A DNA stretch of 64,000 nucleotides, from positions 10,518 to 74,517 of the forward strand of contig OY970324.1 in the NCBI GenBank assembly GCA_963717005.1. Reading direction: 5' to 3'. The notes beneath the pieces are model-generated. The model ran no database searches. It was not told the DNA's origin and saw only the letters and a list, made by a program, of their open reading frames with translations. Positions 4,478-64,000 of this stretch are shown here, one piece after another (the stretch's first letter is position 1; each line of letters starts with the position of its first letter). The stretch is from an uncultured delta proteobacterium (lineage in GTDB: Bacteria > Desulfobacterota > Binatia > Binatales > Binataceae). The translations under genes and the position numbers were made by a program.

Positions 4478-5131
4478 GTGGCTGCATTACCCACTACCAT
4501 TCCGATCTTTCCGCTGCCCAACCTCGTGTTGTTTCCCGGGTTGAGCGTGCCGCTGCATATTTTCGAGCCGCGCTATCGCGAGATGATCGCCAACGTCGCC
4601 AACGCGCACGGCATGATTGGGATGGCGCTGCTCAAGGGCGATTGGCAGGCCGACTATCATGCCTTTCCCGACATTTTCGAGATCGGATGCGCGGGCAAGA
4701 TCGGCGGCCTCGTCAAGCTTGCCGACGGACGCTACAACCTGGTGCTCGAGGGCGTCGGCGAGTTTCGCATCGCGCGCGAGATCCGCGATCGCTCCTATCG
4801 ACAGGCGGAAGTGACATGGTGTCCGGTGCGGCGCGAGGCTCTCGATTGCGACGCTGAGACGATGGACGCCTTGCGCGAGATGCTCTTCAGCTACCTCGGC
4901 GAGCCGGCGCACGAGGCTTGGCGCACAATCGTCGAGCAGCGCGGCTTGCGCGGCGCCGAGCTTATCAACTTCCTGTGCTTTCATCTCGATATCACGCCGC
5001 TCGAAAAGCAGACCCTGCTCGAAGCGCTGGCGGACCGGGTCGATTGCCTGCTCGATGTGCTGACCTTCAAGCTGGAAGAGCGCAAGCATGGGCCCACAGG
5101 CACCAGCGGCGGTCCCGACACCGTTCAGTAG
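4478..5131 (+). CDS. LON N-terminal (substrate-binding, PUA-like) domain protein, stand-alone
   Basis: IPIFPLPNLVLFPGLSVPLHIFEPRYREMI is the hallmark of the Lon N-terminal domain PF02190. The start is GTG. There is no AAA or protease domain. Confidence 0.7.
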   Translation: MAALPTTIPIFPLPNLVLFPGLSVPLHIFEPRYREMIANVANAHGMIGMALLKGDWQADYHAFPDIFEIGCAGKIGGLVKLADGRYNLVLEGVGEFRIAREIRDRSYRQAEVTWCPVRREALDCDAETMDALREMLFSYLGEPAHEAWRTIVEQRGLRGAELINFLCFHLDITPLEKQTLLEALADRVDCLLDVLTFKLEERKHGPTGTSGGPDTVQ

Positions 5132-5502
5132 CGGCAGTCCAACATGAGCGAGGGGCGCAGCCGATGTATGGCAGGCGCGCGACACATTGCGGGCGTTTTG
5201 TGGCCAAATCGTAACGCTTGTCGCAAATGAGTCAGCATGCGCACAAGGGCGACCATTTTCGCAAAATGCGTATTTGTTTGCGAAAAGTTAGAGTTCTTAT
5301 GGATTTCTCACATGATAGAGACCCGAATTGGGGTTCATGAGAGCTTAACATGTTGGCTAAATTGTATTAGGGCAGTTGCCGATAAATTCGGCATGATCGT
5401 TGCTTCTTTCCTAGCCGAACGAATAACAGTCGGATTCCCGGCATCGTCATGACACCTCCGACGGCGGGGGCAACAGGCACGATCGGGTGAGGACAAAGTA
5501 CG

Positions 5503-5943
5503 ATGGAATGGGAAAATAGCGCACTCGGAAATCTCTTCGTGCCAGACGTTTTGACGCCTGAGCAGTTTTATGACAGCCGGCGTGACGACAGTACGATCCG
5601 CCCGGTCAAGAAGCTGATGATGGCGATACTGGAAGACGCACTTCGATGCTTCCAGAATAACGCCGACGCCAAGGGCGGCCCGCGCAAGCGCCTGTTCAGC
5701 GAAGCTGAGCAATGGCTTATCGGCGAAGGCGGAGAGGGGCCGTTCTCGTTCGAGACCGTGTGCGAGACGCTTGGGATCGAGCCGCAATTTTTGCGCAGAG
5801 GCCTGCGGGACTGGCGGACTCAGCAGCTTGCTGGAGTGTCCACGCGACGCCTGGCAAGGCGGTCGCCGGTGGTGCGCAGCGGCCGGATCAGTGCTCCAGC
5901 GCGTCGCGATGCGAAGCGCACGGCGTCGGCCCAAGCTCGCTAG
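5503..5943 (+). CDS. hypothetical protein (146 aa), unrecognised family
   Basis: A clean ORF with non-biased composition, preceded by an AT-rich 5' region and followed by hairpins including a T-tailed terminator. No motif was recognised. Confidence 0.4.
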   Translation: MEWENSALGNLFVPDVLTPEQFYDSRRDDSTIRPVKKLMMAILEDALRCFQNNADAKGGPRKRLFSEAEQWLIGEGGEGPFSFETVCETLGIEPQFLRRGLRDWRTQQLAGVSTRRLARRSPVVRSGRISAPARRDAKRTASAQAR

Positions 5944-29331: not shown

Positions 29332-32300
29332 CTACTCGCCGACGCTGGTGCTGTGTCCGCCGCCGCTCGAGCCCGCCTTTGCCGCCGCGCCGTCGGGCTG
29401 AGAATTCTCGACCGCGCTCGCGATCGCTTTGAGCAGCGTCGATTTCTTGACCGGCTTGCTGACATGCATGTCGCAGCCAACCTCGATTGCGTGCTGCACA
29501 TCGGCCACCAGCGCGGCGGCTGACAGCGCGATGATCGGCGTCCTGCCGCGTCCATTGTCCGCCTCCCAGCGACGAATCTCGCGCACCGCGCCGTAGCCGT
29601 CGAGCACCGGCATCTGGATGTCCATCAGCACCACGTCGTAGGCGCGCGTCATGAAATGGTCGAGCGCCGCCTGGCCGTCCTCCACTTCGTCCAGTGAGTA
29701 GGCGCTCTTCTTGAGATAGGCCGCGATCAACAGGCGATTATCCGGCGAGTCATCAGCCAGCAGAATACTGAGCGGCCGGCCCGTCAAGTCGGTACTCAAA
29801 TCGTTCGGCTTGAGTTCATGGCGCGGCTCGGCGGGCGGATAGGCCGGCGCCGCGACCTCAAGCATCGCGGCGGAAATCGCGGCGTACAATTCGCGGCTCT
29901 TGACCGGTTTCACCACGTAGTAGTTCAAGCCCGTCTGCCGCATCGTGCCCAGGCTGGTGGTCAAACCGTTGGAAGGCACGAGCATGACCACCGGCGCGTT
30001 TCCATTCGGAACGGCGCGCATCCGCCGAAGCATCTCGAAGCCGTCCATCGCGGGCATCTGCAAATCAACCAGCAACAGGCCGAATGGCGTGCCGGCGCGA
30101 TTGGCGGCCGCAAATGCGGCCAGACCTTCGGCTCCGGAAGCGGCGGTGCTGACAGTCGCTCCGCCCGCGGTCAGCATCCGGCTGACGATGGACCGATTAG
30201 TCGCGTTGTCATCGACCACCAGCGCGCGGACCGACGACAAATCGAGCGCGCGAAGCTCCCGCGTTTCGTTTCGGCCGACCGGCGGCGGCATCCCGAGCTC
30301 CACCGTGAAATTGAAAACGCTCCCCGTGCCGAGTTCGCTTTCGACCCAGACCGTCCCGCCCATCAGCGCGACCAGCCGCTCGACGATGGTCAGGCCGAGT
30401 CCGCTGCCGCCGTATTTTCGCGTCGTCGATGAGTCCGCCTGGGTGAAGGCCGAGAAAATGTTGGGCAGCATCTCGCGCGGCATTCCGATCCCGCTGTCGC
30501 GCACCGAGAACAGCAGGCTGCCGGGGTTTGCATGATGCGGGTTGTGCGCGACGTCGATCACGACTTCGCCGCGCTCGGTAAATTTGATCGCGTTGCCGAT
30601 CAGGTTGGTGAGCACCTGGCGCAGCCGCAACGAATCGCCCACCAGGGTCGCCGGCAAATCGGCGCTGAATCGCACCGCGAGCTCGATTCCCTTTTCGTGC
30701 GCCCGCACCGCCAACGTGTCGGCGACTTTCCCGGCCAGCTCAACCACGTCGAACTCGAGCGCCTCCAGGTTCATCCGCCCACTTTCGACCCGCGCGAGAT
30801 CCAGGATGCTGTTGATCAGCTCGAGCAGCGCGTTGCCGTTGCTGATGACGGTATCGAGGTAGCGCCGCTGCTCCGAATCGAGATCGCCCTCGCCGATCAG
30901 GTCGGCCATCCCGAGGATCGCATTCATCGGCGTGCGAATTTCGTGCGACATGCTGGACAGGAATTCGGTCTTGGCCTTCGACGCGGCCAGCGCCTTCTGG
31001 CGCGCCGCCTCCAGGTCGGTGATATCGCGCGCGATCGAAAGCGCGCACACGCGCCCGCCCAGCTCCAGCACCACCGCCGAGATCAGCGCCGGGAAAGTTC
31101 TGCCGCCGGCGGCGCGGAAAGTGGTTTCGAAATTGCGCACTTCGCGCCGCTCGAGCAGCGTTGCGTTGAACAGCTCGAGATGCTCGATGTTATCCCACAC
31201 ACTGAGCTGTGCGAAACGCCGGCCGACGATTTCATCCTTCGCCAGTCCGAGCGATCGCACCAGCTCGTGGTTCACGTCGATAATGATGCCGTCGCTCAGA
31301 TCTGTCAGCGCGATGTTATCGACGCTCGACTCGAATATCTCCCGCAGCATCGCTTCACTGCTTTGCAGCTTGCGCTCCTGTTCCTTGAGCACGGTGATGT
31401 CGCGGGCAATCGTGACGACGCGCAGCTCGCCGCCCAGCTCGACCACCACCGACGACAGCAGCACCGGGATTGCGGCGCCGCGCCTGGTCTGAATTGTCAC
31501 TTCTAAATTGCGCGCCTGGCCGGTGGTACGGAGCGACTCCCGATACTCGCTTTCACTGCCCGCCAGGCGGTTATCGGTGACGCCCGGCGAGATCGTTCCG
31601 ATGATCTCCGCGCGCGAAAATTCGCTCAGCCGCAGGAACTCGTCGTTGACATCGATAAAGCGGCCCTCGAGGTCGGTGATCGAAAGCGGGTCCAGGATCG
31701 AGTCGAAAATCTTGCGCAGGCTGGCTTCGCTGTCCTTAAGCTTTTGTTCCGCCGCGAGCAGATCGCCGATGTTGCGTGTGATCGTCAGGACGCTCAGCTT
31801 GCCGTCCAGCTCAACCATGGCGCCGGACATTAGGCACGGCACCTGCGTTCCATCCTTGGCGTAAAAGTTCGCGCGCATGTTGCGGACTTCGCCGCTCCGG
31901 ATCATCGCCGCCGAAAAGATGTCCGCTTCCTCGCGGCTCGGCCAGACGCCAATCTCCCAGTAGGTCTTGCCCAGCACCTCTTCGCGGCTGAAGCCGGTGG
32001 CGCGCGAGAATTCGTGATTGAGGTCGGTGTAGCGCCGCGTTACCGCATCGGTGGTCGTCACCGAGTCGAGATTCGCGTCGAAAATCTTGCGCAGCGTGGC
32101 CTCGCTGTTGCGCAGTTTTCGCTCCGCTTCCTTCACGTCCGAGATCTCGCGGACCACGATAATCGCGCAGTTCTGATTGCTCAGTTGCACCGCGACCGCC
32201 GAGATGAGCGCCGGCATCGCCCGCTCGTAGCCAACCCCGTTGAGCAGGACCTCGAGGTTTTGCACCACGCCGCTGGTTCGGAGTTCATGCATGAACTGCT

Positions 32301-46488: not shown

Positions 46489-46615
46489 GATTGATTCGTC
46501 CTCCGTGTAGGGTGTTGTCCCGCCGGACGCCCGGCTCGGACTCACGAGCGGATTCTCGCCAATGCCGGACGCTTTTACCAGAGCGTCAACAGTGTGGCGT
46601 CAGCTTCTCCATCCT

Positions 46616-46875
46616 AACCTCTCCTTGTCCGAGGAGAGGTCGGCATAAGCCGCGTGAAACGCGGTGTCGCCGGGAGAGGTGCCGCGCCAGACAGCGCAGC
46701 AACGCCTACTCGTCTAATCGCAATTCATAGACACCCGTCCGCCGCCGGACGGCAGCACCACTTCCGTGCAATGGCGCAAAGAAAAACTGTCGTGGTCGCG
46801 ACGGCCGGCTTTGCACCTCTCCCGCCGCGCTCCTTCGGCGCGCGCCGACCTCTCCTCGGACAAGAAGAGGTCAGG
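46616..46875. repeat. about 260-bp intergenic element bounded by nested inverted repeats (outer 25-bp hairpin-forming IR, inner 15-bp IR); MITE-like, or a structured RNA
   Basis: acctctccttgtccgaggagaggtc at 46617-46641 is the near reverse complement of acctctcctcggacaagaagaggtc at 46848-46872. The inner pair is cgccgggagaggtgc and gcacctctcccgccg. Additional small hairpins lie inside. Confidence 0.4.
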
Positions 46876-46951
46876 ATCTGCCTGCGTGCATTCCGATCCG
46901 CCTCTGGAATCGTCTCCCGTACCAAAGCAAGATGACGCTGTAACCATCTCC

Positions 46952-59570: not shown

Positions 59571-61505
59571 ATGGCGGATCTCAATAACTTCGAGCGAGTG
59601 ATCAAAGAGGACCGCGCCGCGCGTGAGTCGAAGCAATGGCGCGGGACCTTGCTCGAATATCTCGAGGTAGTGAAAGCCGACCCGATCATGACCAAGCTCG
59701 CGCACGCGCGCATCTACGACCTGATCATTTCGGCGGGCCTGCATCCGCTGCACGAGACCGACGATCCGCGCACCAAGCGGCTGTTCAAGGATGAGCCGAT
59801 CAAGGTGTTCGATTTCTTCTCTGAGGAATTCTTCGGCATCGAGCGCACCATCGCGCAGATCGTCCGCTACTTTCATTCCGCGTCGCTCAAGGGCGAAGAG
59901 AGCCGCCAGGTTCTCTACCTGATGGGCCCGGTCGGCTCGGGCAAGAGTTCGCTGGTCGAACGCATCCAGCGCGGTCTCGAGCAGGTCGGACTCATCTACG
60001 CGATCGAAGGATGCCCGATGAACGAAGAGCCGCTGCATCTCGTTCCGCGCCATCTACGCCGCGAGTTCGAGAAGATGCTCGGCGTGCATATCGAGGGCGA
60101 CCTCTGCCCGGTCTGCCGTTATCGGCTCAAGTCGGAGTTCAACAATCGTTACGAGGAATTTCCGGTCATCGCGCGCAACTTCTCCAAGCGCAATCGCGTC
60201 GGCGTCGGCGTGGTGCCGCCGGTCGATCCGAACAATCAGGACACTTCGGTGCTGATCGGCTCCGAAGACATCTCGAAGCTCGACCAGTACTCCGAGGGCG
60301 ACCCGCGCGTGCTCGAACTTAACGGCGCGCTCAACGTCGGCAACCGCGGCATCGTCGAGTTCATCGAAGTTTTCAAGAACGAGACCGAGTACCTGCACGC
60401 GATGATCACGGCGACCCAGGAAAAAGTCATTCCCGCGCCCGGCCGCCACGGGATGGTGTACGTCGATACCTGCATCGTCGCCCATTCCAACGAGGCCGAA
60501 TGGCAGAAGTTCAAGGCCGATCACACCAACGAGGCGATCCTCGATCGAATCGTCGTCGTCAAAGTGCCGTACAACCTGCGCCTGTCCGAGGAAGTCAAGA
60601 TCTACCAGAAGATCATCAAGAACTCCGATTTCCGCGCGCACGTCGCGCCGCACACGCTCGAGCTCGCCTCGATGTACGCGATCCTGTCGCGCCTCGAGCC
60701 GACCTCGAAGTGCGACCTGATGACCAAGCTGCGGCTCTACAACGGCGAGGAAGTCGTCGAGAAGGGACGCACCAAGAAAATCGACGTGCAGGAGCTGAAA
60801 GAAGACACCAAGCGCGAAGGCATGTCGGGCATCTCCACCCGCTTCATCATGAAGGCGCTCGACAACGCGCTGTCGGACAACGTCACCGGCAACTGCATCA
60901 ATCCGATCAACGTGCGTGAGGCGCTCATCTCGATGACCAAGGAGGGCGACCTGCCCGACGACACCCGCAAGCAGTACCTCGAGTTCCTGCAGGACACGCT
61001 GCACAAGGAATATCTCGACCTGCTCGAAAAAGAGATCACCCGCGCCTTCGTGTACTCCTACCAGGAGCAGGCGGAGTCGCTGTTCCAGAACTACCTCGAT
61101 CACGCCGAGGCCTACGTCAACAAGACGCGCGTGCGCGATCGCAACACCAATGAGGAACTGTCGCCCGACGAGGGCTTCCTGAAATCGATCGAGGAGCAAA
61201 TCGCGATCATCGGCTCGGCCGCCGACGGCTTCCGCCAGGAAGTGATCGCGTACCTGTGGGCAACCTCGCGCCGCGGCGAAAAGATCAGCTACAAGAGCTA
61301 CGAGCCGCTCAAGGAAGCGATCGAGAAAAAGCTGATGACCAGCGTGCGCGACATCTCGCGAATCATCACCAAGGCCCGCACCCGCGACGAGGAGCAGGGC
61401 GAGAAGTACGGCGCGATGGTGAAGAACCTGCTCGAAAACGGCTACTGCGAATCATGCGTCGATGTGGTCCTAAAGTACGCCGCCAACAATCTATGGAAGG
61501 ATTGA
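59571..61505 (+). CDS. prkA: PrkA family serine protein kinase
   Basis: The YLMGPVGSGKSS Walker A and the overall YeaG/PrkA architecture. GAAGGAGA RBS. Confidence 0.9.
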   Translation: MADLNNFERVIKEDRAARESKQWRGTLLEYLEVVKADPIMTKLAHARIYDLIISAGLHPLHETDDPRTKRLFKDEPIKVFDFFSEEFFGIERTIAQIVRYFHSASLKGEESRQVLYLMGPVGSGKSSLVERIQRGLEQVGLIYAIEGCPMNEEPLHLVPRHLRREFEKMLGVHIEGDLCPVCRYRLKSEFNNRYEEFPVIARNFSKRNRVGVGVVPPVDPNNQDTSVLIGSEDISKLDQYSEGDPRVLELNGALNVGNRGIVEFIEVFKNETEYLHAMITATQEKVIPAPGRHGMVYVDTCIVAHSNEAEWQKFKADHTNEAILDRIVVVKVPYNLRLSEEVKIYQKIIKNSDFRAHVAPHTLELASMYAILSRLEPTSKCDLMTKLRLYNGEEVVEKGRTKKIDVQELKEDTKREGMSGISTRFIMKALDNALSDNVTGNCINPINVREALISMTKEGDLPDDTRKQYLEFLQDTLHKEYLDLLEKEITRAFVYSYQEQAESLFQNYLDHAEAYVNKTRVRDRNTNEELSPDEGFLKSIEEQIAIIGSAADGFRQEVIAYLWATSRRGEKISYKSYEPLKEAIEKKLMTSVRDISRIITKARTRDEEQGEKYGAMVKNLLENGYCESCVDVVLKYAANNLWKD

Positions 61506-61542
61506 GCCAACGGAGGGCCATTGCCGCGCGCGTTCTTTTCCT

Positions 61543-61650
61543 TGTGTCATTCAGAGCGAAGCGAAGAATCCCGGCTCTTTGTGTCATTCAGAGCGAAGCG
61601 AAGAATCCCGCTCTTTGTGTCATTCAGAGCGAAGCGAAGAATCCCGGCTC
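61543..61650 (+). repeat. tandem array (3 copies) of a 34-bp repeat, gtgtcattcagagcgaagcgaagaatcccggctc, with 3-4 bp spacers
   Basis: Read directly. Translation of the repeats gives the artefactual LCHSERSEESR / SFRAKRRIP ORFs in the track. Confidence 0.7.
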
Positions 61651-61660
61651 CGAAAGCAGC

Positions 61661-61960
61661 ATGCGAAAAACATCGAACCGCAAGAGCTACTACGTCTATA
61701 TAATGAGCAGCCCCTCACGAACCCTCTACACCGGCGTCACCAACGATCTCGAGCGGCGTGTGAATGAGCACAAAAACGGCGCCTTCGACAGCTTCACCAA
61801 GCGCTACCGGGTCAATCAATTGGTCTATTTTCAAGAGACGAACGACGTAAACGCCGCGATTGCGGCTGAAAAACTCCTTAAGGGCATCTCGCGATCGAAA
61901 AAGATTGCACTAATTGAGGCCGAAAACCCGACGTGGCACGACTTGAGTGATGAATCATAG
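61661..61960 (+). CDS. small GIY-YIG nuclease family protein (99 aa)
   Basis: SYYVYIMSSPSRTLYTGVTNDLERRVNEH, the GIY-YIG motif. It is flanked on both sides by the 34-bp repeats. Confidence 0.75.
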   Translation: MRKTSNRKSYYVYIMSSPSRTLYTGVTNDLERRVNEHKNGAFDSFTKRYRVNQLVYFQETNDVNAAIAAEKLLKGISRSKKIALIEAENPTWHDLSDES

Positions 61961-61970
61961 AAAAAGATCG

Positions 61971-62184
61971 GGATTCTTTGCCGCAGCGGCTCTGAATGAC
62001 ACAACTCTTCGTGTCATTCAGAGCAAAGCGAAGAATCCCGGCTCCTCGTGCCATTCAGCGCAGAGTCCGTCCTTGTGTCATTCAGAGCGAAGCGAAGAAT
62101 CCCGGCTCCTTGTGTCATTCAGAGCGAAGCGAAGAATCCCGGCATCTTTGTGTCATTCAGAGCGAAGCGAAGAATCCCGGCTCC
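61971..62184. repeat. second repeat cluster: one inverted-orientation copy (61971-62003), then 4-5 direct copies (one degenerate) of the same 34-bp unit
   Basis: gggattctttgccgcagcggctctgaatgacac is the reverse complement of a unit variant. It is followed by gtgtcattcagagc(g/a)aagcgaagaatcccgg... repeated. Confidence 0.7.
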
Positions 62185-62352
62185 GGAACCTGCGTGCCGA
62201 ACATGTCGAGCACCACGATGCCACCAAATCCAATTCCGACGGAACGAACCTACCGATGGTAGTGCAAGCACCCCAAAACCACTACCCATGGTATGATCAC
62301 CAATGCACCGTACGTTGATGCCCAAACTAAACATAACTTCCAGAGTCTCCGC

Positions 62353-63696
62353 ATGAGTGGCGACACGATCTTCCGCGAATACCGAATCTCTGACGCCGAG
62401 CGCTCTGACCGCTCGGCGGGCGACCGGCTGCGGCATCGGCAGAAAGTTCGCGAGTCGATTCGCGAAAATATCGCCGACATCATCGCCGAAGAATCGATCA
62501 TCGGCAAAAACAAGGACCGCGTAATCAAAGTCCCGCTGCGCGGCATCAAGGAATACCGCTTCGTGTTCGGCGACAACTCGCCCGGCGCCTCGCAGGGCGA
62601 TGGCGACTCGCGCCCGGGACAAGTCGTCGGCAAGACCGGCAAGGACGGCCCCGGTAAGGGCGATGAAGCCGGCGACCGCCCCGGCGTCGACTACTACGAG
62701 ACCGACGTTACGCTCGAAGAGTTGATTGAGATCATGTTCGAGGATCTCGAACTGCCCAACCTCGAGCGCCGCGCGCTGCGGGAAATCCAGTCCGAGTATT
62801 CTTCAAGGCGCAAAGGCTACCGCAAGGTCGGCATCCGCATCAGGCTCGACAAGCGGCGCACCGCCAAGCAGCGCGTGATGCGCATGCTCGCGTCGGACAA
62901 GCGCAACGACGCAGCCGCGAAGGCGTTGGAAGAATCGAAGGCCGATCGCGAAATCGAGGCCGACGCCGGCGTCGAAGGCGCACTCGACGAGATCGCGCTC
63001 GAGGAAGGTGCGCTGGACGGAGCACCGCTCGACGAAGAGGCGCTCGCTGATTCGCCGGGCGTCGCCGCGTTCCAGCGCGTCCGTAAGCGCTTCCCGTTCC
63101 ATCAGGGCGACCTGCGTTATAAGCACGTCGAAATCGACACCAAGGAAGAATCCAACGCCGCGGTCATCTGCATCATGGACACCTCGGGCTCGATGGACAC
63201 GATGAAGAAGTACCTCGCGCGCAGCTTCTTCTTCCTGCTCTACCAGTTCATCTCGACCCGCTACCGCAACGTCGAAATCGTCTTCATCGCGCATCACACG
63301 GAGGCCAGCGAGGTCACCGAGGAAGAGTTCTTTCACAAGGGCGAATCGGGCGGCACCTTCATCTCCTCCGGCTACGCCAAGGCGCTGGAAATAATCGCCG
63401 CGCGCTACCATCCGTCGTTGTGGAATCTGTACGCGTTCCATTGCTCCGACGGCGACAACTTCGACTCCGACAATCCCGCCGCGCTCAAGGACGCCGAGGA
63501 GCTCGCCGAAATCTGCAACCTGTTCGGCTACGGCGAGATCAAGCCGATGGGCTCGCGCTACTATGAGTCCTCGATGCTCAACGTGTTCCGCCGAATCCAG
63601 GCGCCGAATTTCCACACCGTGCTGATCGAGCGCAAGGAAGATATCTGGCCGTCGTTCAAAGCCTTCCTGGCCAAGGACCGGGTGAAGGAAGCATGA
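62353..63696 (+). CDS. yeaH: YeaH/YhbH family protein (DUF444), PrkA partner
   Basis: A VWA-like C-terminal region (ICIMDTSGSM) with a long acidic/basic linker. The start is at the internal ATG. Confidence 0.8.
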   Translation: MSGDTIFREYRISDAERSDRSAGDRLRHRQKVRESIRENIADIIAEESIIGKNKDRVIKVPLRGIKEYRFVFGDNSPGASQGDGDSRPGQVVGKTGKDGPGKGDEAGDRPGVDYYETDVTLEELIEIMFEDLELPNLERRALREIQSEYSSRRKGYRKVGIRIRLDKRRTAKQRVMRMLASDKRNDAAAKALEESKADREIEADAGVEGALDEIALEEGALDGAPLDEEALADSPGVAAFQRVRKRFPFHQGDLRYKHVEIDTKEESNAAVICIMDTSGSMDTMKKYLARSFFFLLYQFISTRYRNVEIVFIAHHTEASEVTEEEFFHKGESGGTFISSGYAKALEIIAARYHPSLWNLYAFHCSDGDNFDSDNPAALKDAEELAEICNLFGYGEIKPMGSRYYESSMLNVFRRIQAPNFHTVLIERKEDIWPSFKAFLAKDRVKEA

Positions 63697-64000
63697 GCGC
63701 CACTCCCCACGCCGGCACCGCGCCGCGCATCGCGACCTGGAATCTGCACGACCTCGTCGAATGGGACGTTAGGATTCGCGCCAAGGCCGACGAGTTCGGG
63801 CTCGACTACTACCCGCAGGAGTTCGAGCTTTGCGATCACACCGGGATGCTCGGTTATATGGCGTACTCCGGCATGCCGTCGCATTACCCGCACTGGTCCT
63901 ACGGCAAGTCGTACGAAAAGCTCAAGACGCTCTACGATCACGGGGTCAGCGGCCTGCCGTACGAGATGGTGATCAACTCGAATCCCGCCATCGCCTACCT
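63693..64000 (+). CDS. spoVR: SpoVR family protein (partial, continues beyond the window)
   Basis: MSATPHAGTAPRIATWNLHDLVEWDVRIRAKADEFGLDYYPQEFE...; ATGA overlap with the yeaH stop. Confidence 0.8.
   Translation, partial: MSATPHAGTAPRIATWNLHDLVEWDVRIRAKADEFGLDYYPQEFELCDHTGMLGYMAYSGMPSHYPHWSYGKSYEKLKTLYDHGVSGLPYEMVINSNPAIAY

Follow-up and report, generated by a model that had tools for sequence, protein, structure and literature searches.

The locus considered here lies in a 64,000-nt stretch of contig OY970324.1 from an uncultured Binataceae bacterium (hereafter, the window), and it raises the question of what separates two operon genes, prkA and yeaH, and how that material came to stand between them. 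The initial annotation of the stretch, made from its letters alone, had put about 850 bp between the two genes; the measured spacer is 847 bp, from the prkA stop at 61505 to the most likely yeaH start at 62353 (the ATG matching homologues, picked by comparison with L201 and L327; such handles denote comparison sequences). Within this spacer we find a cassette of ~390 bp (61617-62002), in which a gene for a small GIY-YIG nuclease stands between inverted copies of a repeat, inside an array of further copies. Drawing on this architecture, on covariation in the repeat hairpin, on the linkage of gene and repeat across bacteria, on the polymorphism of the site, on the exchange of cassettes between sites and on purifying selection acting on the gene, we consider it fairly probable that the cassette is a mobile or selfish unit, composed of a nuclease and its cognate hairpin repeat and spread by DNA repair, that resembles the partnership of repetitive extragenic palindromic (REP) sequences with their REP-associated tyrosine transposases (RAYTs).

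A nuclease gene between inverted repeat copies

Structurally, the left end of the cassette is an exact, direct copy of a 34-mer repeat (61617-61650, plus strand), with a GAATC core that ends 17 nt before the ATG of the nuclease open reading frame (ORF; 61661-61960, plus strand, 99 aa), and the right end is a diverged, inverted copy (61969-62002, minus strand) that lies 8 nt past the stop codon and carries 16- and 13-nt blocks exactly or near-exactly complementary to the direct copies. Two further plus-strand copies stand upstream, one of them exact (61544-61577) and the other lacking a single base (61581-61613, with an exact 23-nt core at 61585-61607); the upstream tandem array, which includes the first of these, has a period of 36 and 3.0 copies. 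Downstream, again on the plus strand, follow a copy with one mismatch (62011-62044), a truncated and degenerate copy (GTGCCATTCAGCGCAGAGTCCGTCC, ~62048-62072) of a kind that stands ahead of full copies in many other loci, an exact copy (62075-62108), a copy with two mismatches at its 3' end (62112-62145) and another exact copy (62150-62183). The expectation for the 34-mer in shuffled sequence is 0.00 matches, and the repeat was not found in the 64-kb window outside the prkA-yeaH spacer. Three direct copies, a 99-aa GIY-YIG ORF, one inverted copy and four or five further direct copies had been described in the initial annotation, and all are present where it had placed them, with the last group now resolved into four full copies and one truncated; the artefactual ORFs that it had blamed on the repeats (SFRAKRRIP, CHSERSEESR) are indeed found in the window's ORF listing, where they read through the repeat copies.

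The edges of the array carry traces of duplication as well. After the last repeat, the leader and the first ~8 codons of the nuclease gene are duplicated as a decayed stub (62184-62218, plus strand), the stretch 62145-62218 being 82% identical to 61612-61685. A similar 5' stub stands at the downstream array edge in L203 and L204, and partial duplications of repeat, leader and first codons occur at array edges in several loci. The inverted copy and the direct copy that follows it form a long hairpin (61969-62040), comparable to the inverted doublets of REP sequences known as REPINs, with folding energies of -27.2 kcal/mol as DNA (z=-7.5) and -46.8 kcal/mol as RNA (z=-8.1). Hairpin prediction, which had been proposed as a check on the locus, thus returned a strong structure for this doublet, and the hairpin of the single unit is supported by covariation, not by the energy model.

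Functionally, sequence and predicted structure assign the 99-aa protein to the GIY-YIG superfamily, and within it to the Slx1/UPF0213 branch. In Pfam, the protein matches GIY-YIG (PF01541) over residues 10-81 (E=2.1e-14, 54 bits against a cut-off of 22.6); a related family, T5orf172, is matched weakly and Y1_Tnp not at all, and neither Pfam nor NCBIfam gave a second domain. A profile search of the Protein Data Bank (PDB) returned 1zg2 (E=3.6e-7) and 1ywl (E=9.5e-6), and with an AlphaFold2 model of the protein (predicted local distance difference test score, pLDDT, of 77) the Foldseek ranking was 1zg2, 1ywl and then Slx1 (6seh), with a probability of 1.0 for each. Across 33 homologues, no substitution is seen at residues Y13, Y23, R32, E36, H37, E70 and N89, and conservation reaches 90% or more at G25 and R33; the catalytic roles of the conserved GIY, YIG, Arg, His, Glu and Asn positions we take to be those known from I-TevI and UvrC. 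The median dN/dS (ratio of nonsynonymous to synonymous substitution rates) of the gene is 0.09 over 82 pairs, which indicates purifying selection, and to judge by its sequence the protein looks functional. The family to which it belongs is very large, with 17,842 clusters at 50% identity (E<=1e-3), nearly all of 95-180 aa. Dunin-Horkawicz et al. described the Slx1-like/UPF0213 group, whose function was unknown, as prokaryotic GIY-YIG domains in their minimal, stand-alone form, related to the structure-specific nuclease Slx1 (PMC1564403).

The hairpin repeat and its linkage to the gene

Gene and repeat occur together well beyond the window. Among the best 80 metagenomic matches to the protein alignment (52-89% identity), the motif lies within 200 nt of the homologous GIY-YIG gene at 75 loci, with a sense motif upstream in 65 of the 80 and an inverted motif downstream in 48; the background density of the motif is 0.15 per kb. 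Spacing is likewise regular, in that the upstream motif ends no more than 40 nt before the start codon in 50 of 77 loci, and exactly 17 nt before it in 24, while the downstream inverted motif starts at a modal 11 nt past the stop codon. Approached from the side of the repeat, GIY-YIG genes are found in six of 119 repeat loci, all six within 200 nt of a repeat, and GIY-YIG is the only protein family that recurs beside the repeat across phyla among the loci listed. It was on such co-occurrence elsewhere that the initial annotation had staked its suggestion of a compact selfish, homing-type or repeat-associated nuclease unit, and the suggestion is now supported by this linkage together with the polymorphism of the site described below.

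Taxonomically, the same gene-plus-repeat layout is found in Bacteroidaceae and Flavobacteriaceae (Bacteroidota), in Ruminococcus (Firmicutes) and on a Planktothrix plasmid (Cyanobacteria). On Sinorhizobium meliloti pSymB (L330:789-1960), a 49%-identical GIY-YIG gene located between hflX and mazG is accompanied by a different palindromic repeat of ~150 nt, with three copies upstream and one downstream, and this repeat occurs at 22-32 places per replicon, under no annotated feature. A minimal GIY-YIG gene is thus again situated in its genome's dispersed palindromic repeat, so the principle is wider than one motif. As observations in their own right, the cassette of Planktothrix agardhii plasmid p1 (L329:1182-2100), which carries the motif variant GTCATTCTGAGTGAAACGAAGAATC and repeat doublets, lies within a cluster of defence genes, with an MmeI-type restriction-modification gene on one side and the DISARM gene drmA on the other, and Acidobacteria-like contigs (L177, L178, L179, L188, L189, L191, L194, L195 and L198) share a conserved 387-aa ORF (e.g. 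L188:961-2124) that joins GIY-YIG (aa 4-75) in frame with an enoyl-CoA hydratase (ECH_1, aa 138-387). At 9 nt upstream of this ORF is the repeat variant GTCATGC..GCACC, and in these contigs the cassette appears to have been fused to a host gene.

The repeat itself was followed through its 23-nt core, CATTCAGAGCGAAGCGAAGAATC, for which contigs representing one genome per species gave at least 119 loci with an exact match, spread over about ten phyla. Its hosts are Bacteroidota (the isolates Tannerella forsythia, Hymenobacter and Pedobacter among them), Ignavibacteria, Binatia, Clostridia, Saccharibacteria, Chloroflexota, Verrucomicrobiota, Planctomycetota, Acidobacteriota and Proteobacteria. 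The flanks of these loci are mutually unrelated and of host-typical composition, and the GT that precedes the searched core is likewise conserved. Solo copies occur in both orientations, and two of 66 lie inside long ORFs (low-GC loci, in which such ORFs cover 80% of the sequence); doublets of one plus and one minus copy, ~45 nt apart, are present in several genomes, including those of Hymenobacter and Rikenellaceae. A degenerate 25-mer version of the motif was also found in at least 120 viral or proviral contigs (IMG/VR, L205-L324). Among the matches listed, 0 of 120 motif-bearing viral contigs encode a GIY-YIG gene of the window nuclease's family, so phage carriage of the whole cassette is unsupported.

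Each repeat unit consists of an unpaired (T)GTCA followed by a small hairpin, with an outer stem of 3-4 bp, a purine-rich 3x3 internal loop (AGA/GAA) that could form tandem sheared G.A pairs, an inner stem of 2 bp and a GNA triloop. The inner part of this hairpin is the GCGNAGC 'mini-hairpin' sequence, which is extraordinarily stable in DNA (PMC13037366), and the middle base of the triloop is free to vary, as in GCGNAGC mini-hairpins. Variants of the outer stem covary (GTCATTC..GAAT, GTCATCC..GGAT, GTCATGC..GCAT), and those of the inner stem change from GC-GNA-GC to AC-GNA-GT. Across 62 distinct 24-mers, anchored on unpaired positions only so that the paired columns were unconstrained, 82% of cells are paired, where shuffles give 72.7% (0/500), and covariation scores 0.307 versus 0.152 (0/500), with pair 6-22 occurring as UA 27, CG 11, GC 4 and AU 2 and pair 11-17 as GC 37 and AU 13; slid-register controls collapse. 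Covariation was used for the single unit because the standard energy model credits neither G.A pairs nor the mini-hairpin; by minimum free energy, neither one unit nor the direct arrays fold better than shuffles do (z of +0.7 to +2.5).

Several other identities were considered for the repeat and its array, and rejected. A CRISPR array is ruled out by units only 2-4 nt apart and the absence of spacers, and an integron attC cassette by the single gene type and the absence of an integrase. The 3' half of the repeat (GCGAAGAA) recalls the bulged strand of the kink-turn Kt-7, and a CUGA..GAA likeness recalls a hammerhead core; for the former, the covarying pairs 6-22 and 7-21 fix a plain hairpin, and for the latter UGA is missing and the covarying pairs again fix the plain hairpin register. 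A permissive Rfam 15 search of the region returned no family (best 17.8 bits against a gathering score of 39, E=1.2). Separately, in Binatia-like sequences (L013, L021, L027, L056, L067, L099, L107 and L109) the 34-mer forms the 3'-terminal part of a composite dispersed element (~170 nt), in which there are three further hairpins (gtgaaaccc..gggtttcac, gcagggg..ccctgc and aaatggcg..cgccattt).

Allelic states and exchange at the prkA-yeaH junction

How the cassette came to stand in the operon is best approached through close relatives. Among genomes with PrkA 93-99% identical, the junction takes at least five states: an empty one, with a 21-nt spacer and no motif (L327, L328); a solo-repeat one, with one inverted motif in a 50-nt spacer (L201); a pseudogene one, with a frameshifted nuclease gene and repeats (L203); the intact cassette (the window, L200, L037 and about a dozen metagenome contigs); and a fifth, in the Binataceae sequence L325 (PrkA 93% identical), whose spacer holds a DUF559/Vsr-like gene (128 aa, Pfam E=6e-29). 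The comparison of spacing in relatives that the initial annotation had called for thus finds an element that is not fixed at this site, which has empty, solo-repeat and pseudogene alleles as well as alleles of differing clades, all in relatives with a PrkA identity of 96-99%. Insertion of the cassette between prkA and yeaH is old and common within the genus Binatus, so that the junction is a long-standing hot spot and not the site of a one-off recent event. The DUF559 gene of L325 (5090-5476) is itself flanked by a hairpin repeat of its own (ccccttcccgatgcgggaagggg), with copies near 4985-5030, 5425-5465, 5630-5670 and 5790-5815, and a DUF559 gene is also present at L202:7352-7711; gene and repeats together look like a second nuclease-plus-repeat system in the same niche.

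Evolutionarily, the nuclease proteins group by repeat variant and not by genomic site. Copies at the prkA site fall into at least four clades with a mutual identity of 70-80%, and the 'TCTAGAGC' clade brings together prkA-site copies and copies from other sites at 88-89% identity; one member of this clade is located between hemH and hemY in a genome that carries a different clade at prkA. One Binatus contig has two diverged nuclease copies at two sites. Between L131 and L135, whose flanks are orthologous, a 413-bp unit bounded by 39-nt inverted ends has been flipped end to end. Where the nuclease gene and the adjacent prkA are compared over the same pairs of genomes, synonymous divergence (dS) is 0.95-2.8 for the former, which is 2-7 times the 0.24-0.61 of the latter.

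The genes around the cassette are prkA (59571-61505; Pfam AAA_PrkA E=1.4e-147, PrkA E=2e-88), yeaH/yhbH (62353-63696; DUF444 E=5.6e-125) and the 5' part of spoVR (63693-64000; SpoVR E=4.6e-35), all on the plus strand, and the window PrkA is 97-99% identical to that of Candidatus Binatus (phylum Binatota). Since the cassette points the same way as prkA-yeaH-spoVR and lacks a recognisable promoter (a scan of the region found no promoter-like site), it is probably transcribed by read-through from prkA. The hairpin at 61969-62040 has no T-tract and was not called a terminator by the scan, which returned one weak terminator-like site, on the minus strand and within chance expectation. Upstream of yeaH, at 62225-62300, there is a conserved, hairpin-capable stretch (..ccgacggaacgaa.ctaccgatggt.gtg....ccac.acc.atggtatga..) that is also present at L203:6590-6650 and 3' of the arrays in L037 and L132; it is common to occupied sites and absent from the empty 21-nt and the 50-nt spacers. 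Elsewhere in the window, a unit of 267 bp (46611-46877) resembling a miniature inverted-repeat transposable element (MITE) ends in inverted 34-nt arms with 94% complementarity, each of them a small palindrome (CCTCTCC..GGAGAGG) of the hairpin type that flanks the DUF559 gene in L202, and three diverged 80-nt direct repeats (31301-32127, 61-75% identical, ~375 nt apart) are probably an internal repeat of a coding region.

Proposed mechanism, alternatives and wider meaning

Mechanistically, the cassette probably spreads through nuclease-stimulated recombination among repeats. The nuclease would recognise the repeat once it has folded, whether into a single-stranded DNA hairpin or, at doublets, into a cruciform, and would nick or cut there; since a GIY-YIG enzyme cannot rejoin DNA, host recombinational repair would be needed to heal the break, with another repeat-bearing locus as the template, and in doing so would carry copies of repeats, and at times of the entire cassette, to further sites that bear the repeat. 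This would amount to a homing-like gene conversion in which the flanking repeats and arrays act as homology arms, and tandem arrays, truncated copies, duplicated 5' stubs, in-place inversion and gene decay would be its by-products. Such a model would account for the replacement of one cassette clade by another, with orientation kept, at a single site that bears repeats, as well as for the arrays, the stubs, the decay of the gene and the solo repeats that far outnumber genes.

Several points weigh against this reading. No target-site duplication or clean insertion junction was found between the empty L327 and the solo-repeat L201, a comparison that includes no recent insertion. No nuclease gene is present within 8 kb in 113 of the 119 listed repeat loci, and the repeat thus persists, and may spread, without the gene in cis; with the gene absent from these loci and from the 120 viral contigs, any action of the nuclease would need to be in trans, or else the repeats persist by other means. 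The 99-aa protein has no separate DNA-binding domain, and its binding and cutting of the repeat, like the repair-mediated spread, are inferred. Furthermore, the hairpin of the single unit finds no support in the energy model (z=+0.7) and is suggested instead by covariation at essentially two pairs and by knowledge of non-canonical pairs, and many of the 80 gene loci are related or orthologous and so do not represent independent events. Lastly, a gene under such strong purifying selection and so long retained at one site could also have a role that benefits the host.

Such a role is the substance of one alternative, a domesticated partnership resembling REP/RAYT in which a vertically kept host nuclease processes or limits the repeat hairpins or cruciforms, or uses them, and the repeats serve the host, e.g. 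in mRNA stability or operon punctuation. We regard this as unlikely: the dN/dS of ~0.09, the retention of the cassette at prkA-yeaH across many Binatus genomes, the intergenic position of the repeats, the size and conservation of the family (its 17,842 clusters) and the nature of Slx1-type enzymes, which are structure-specific repair nucleases (PMC1564403), would all suit it, whereas pseudogene, empty and solo-repeat alleles in close relatives, at least two diverged copies in one genome, a cassette phylogeny that departs from site with a dS 2-7 times that of the neighbouring gene, and decayed 5' stubs and partial duplications would not. Co-location might also have no enzymatic basis, with an ordinary small repair-nuclease gene meeting independent REP- or MITE-like repeats that are moved by something else and that pile up in permissive intergenic spots, or that serve as promoter, terminator or RNA-stability elements. 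The fixed 17-nt distance to the start codon could then be an expression signal; most repeat copies have no nuclease gene nearby; and the prkA-yeaH spacer of another genome took up an unrelated DUF559 nuclease gene with different hairpin repeats, which makes the spacer a general hot spot. We nevertheless find this account improbable, given that the layout of a sense copy 17 nt upstream and an inverted copy ~11 nt downstream recurs across phyla of differing promoter types, that protein clades track repeat variants, that the whole unit inverts and relocates end to end, that no promoter-like or terminator-like site was found at the window locus, and that the Sinorhizobium homologues are again flanked by their own genome's dispersed repeat.

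If the GIY-YIG protein were instead the transposase of a classical cut-and-paste insertion sequence (IS), acting on terminal inverted repeats and leaving solo doublets as MITEs, then inverted ends of 34-39 nt bracketing a single small gene, dispersed hairpin doublets in Hymenobacter, Rikenellaceae and other genomes, and the occurrence of the cassette at different sites would be expected. Yet the comparison of L327 with L201 gives no clear target-site duplication, copies within a genome are diverged and not near-identical, and arrays of direct repeats, more than two ends, surround the gene; moreover, GIY-YIG enzymes are hydrolytic nucleases for which we know of no strand-transfer activity or covalent intermediate, and we judge this explanation quite improbable. 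Covariation supports a hairpin without telling DNA from RNA, and the motif stands in the likely 5' leader of the nuclease gene, so it might act as RNA, in the form of a structured 5'- or 3'-untranslated element or a small RNA (e.g. in autoregulation of the nuclease mRNA), and not as a DNA substrate; a published fusion is suggestive of a role in RNA metabolism for some prokaryotic Slx1-like proteins (PMC1564403). This we hold to be very improbable, as there is no Rfam family match, solo copies occur in both orientations in intergenic regions and viral contigs far from such genes, the inverted downstream copy would put the complementary, pyrimidine-rich strand into the RNA, and GCGNAGC is known for its stability in DNA (PMC13037366).

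Set beside known systems, the repair-spread cassette that we favour shares with REP/RAYT a small nuclease-type gene between inverted copies of the genome's own dispersed, imperfectly palindromic intergenic repeat, a conserved unpaired 5' tetranucleotide ahead of the hairpin, inverted-repeat doublets (REPINs), repeats that far outnumber genes, and enzyme clades that go with repeat variants. It differs in its enzyme, a hydrolytic GIY-YIG nuclease (Slx1/UPF0213) whereas RAYTs are Y1 HUH (IS200-like) tyrosine transposases, in its motif (GTCA plus a GCGNAGC-centred hairpin), which is unrelated to GTAG-REPs and whose core is common to several phyla, and in a gene that can be multi-copy, is swapped between sites and decays, whereas the RAYT criterion is a single-copy, vertically inherited gene. 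With free-standing GIY-YIG homing endonuclease genes (of the phage T4 Seg and I-TevI type) it has in common the GIY-YIG domain, a small selfish-looking gene between conserved genes, alleles with and without the gene, pseudogene decay and an expected spread via break repair. However, the window protein has 99 aa and no linker or DNA-binding domain (NUMOD, zinc finger or helix-turn-helix) and belongs to the Slx1-like and not the homing endonuclease/UvrC branch, genes of its type are chromosomal in many phyla, and its putative target is a multi-copy structured repeat and not a unique allele. The initial annotation can be refined accordingly: the single repeat is a hairpin, the unit has inverted ends, it occurs in many phyla, and it is not a classical homing endonuclease, being of the minimal Slx1/UPF0213 type without a DNA-binding domain.

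Prokaryotic Slx1-like/UPF0213 proteins (YhbQ type; PDB 1zg2, 1ywl) provide the best sequence and fold matches, and they too are single domains of ~100 aa with conserved Tyr, Tyr, Arg and Glu; we found no function or repeat association reported for UPF0213, whereas the window subfamily is defined by its flanking repeats, and the motif was not found in the 5,426 Escherichia coli genomes scanned. IS200/IS605-type elements and MITEs are likewise very small, with non-autonomous hairpin derivatives, ends that fold into small imperfect hairpins, probably read in single-stranded DNA, and terminal inverted repeats that bound the unit (61617-61650 pairs with 61969-62002 in the window, and the ends are 39 nt long in L131/L135). 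In contrast to these, the cassette encodes no transposase (DDE, HUH, serine or tyrosine), its only ORF being the GIY-YIG gene; L327 and L201, when compared, show neither a defined target site nor a clear duplication; and tandem arrays of the end sequence surround the window gene. In the literature on GIY-YIG genes, UPF0213/YhbQ, REP/RAYT and MITEs, of which our coverage is incomplete, we found no description of repeats flanking such genes, nor are such repeats described in the phylogenomic reference paper on GIY-YIG nucleases (PMC1564403).

Beyond the window, we tentatively posit, as a possibility to which we would not yet give even odds, that minimal Slx1-like GIY-YIG nucleases and their cognate hairpin repeats form an unrecognised pan-bacterial selfish class, a GIY-YIG counterpart of REP/RAYT in which the nuclease reads a GCGNAGC-centred hairpin and spread proceeds via host break repair. 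If true, this would give a function to a very large orphan family (UPF0213/YhbQ type) and would explain an abundant class of intergenic repeats, and spurious ORFs, in many phyla. For annotation, the repeats yield recurrent artefactual ORFs and lengthen the nuclease proteins that are called, and for the operon, a cassette that turns a 21-nt junction into an 847-bp spacer with a strong hairpin is a natural experiment on polarity. The motif holds one of the most stable DNA mini-hairpins known, and a protein reading it would be of interest to structural work and biotechnology. For the family as a whole, the fixed link to a structured, cross-phylum repeat offers stand-alone GIY-YIG proteins a candidate substrate and role, and it would show a REP-like lifestyle arising with a chemically different, hydrolytic and host-repair-dependent enzyme, a second enzyme chemistry that bears on how REP-like elements spread and persist.

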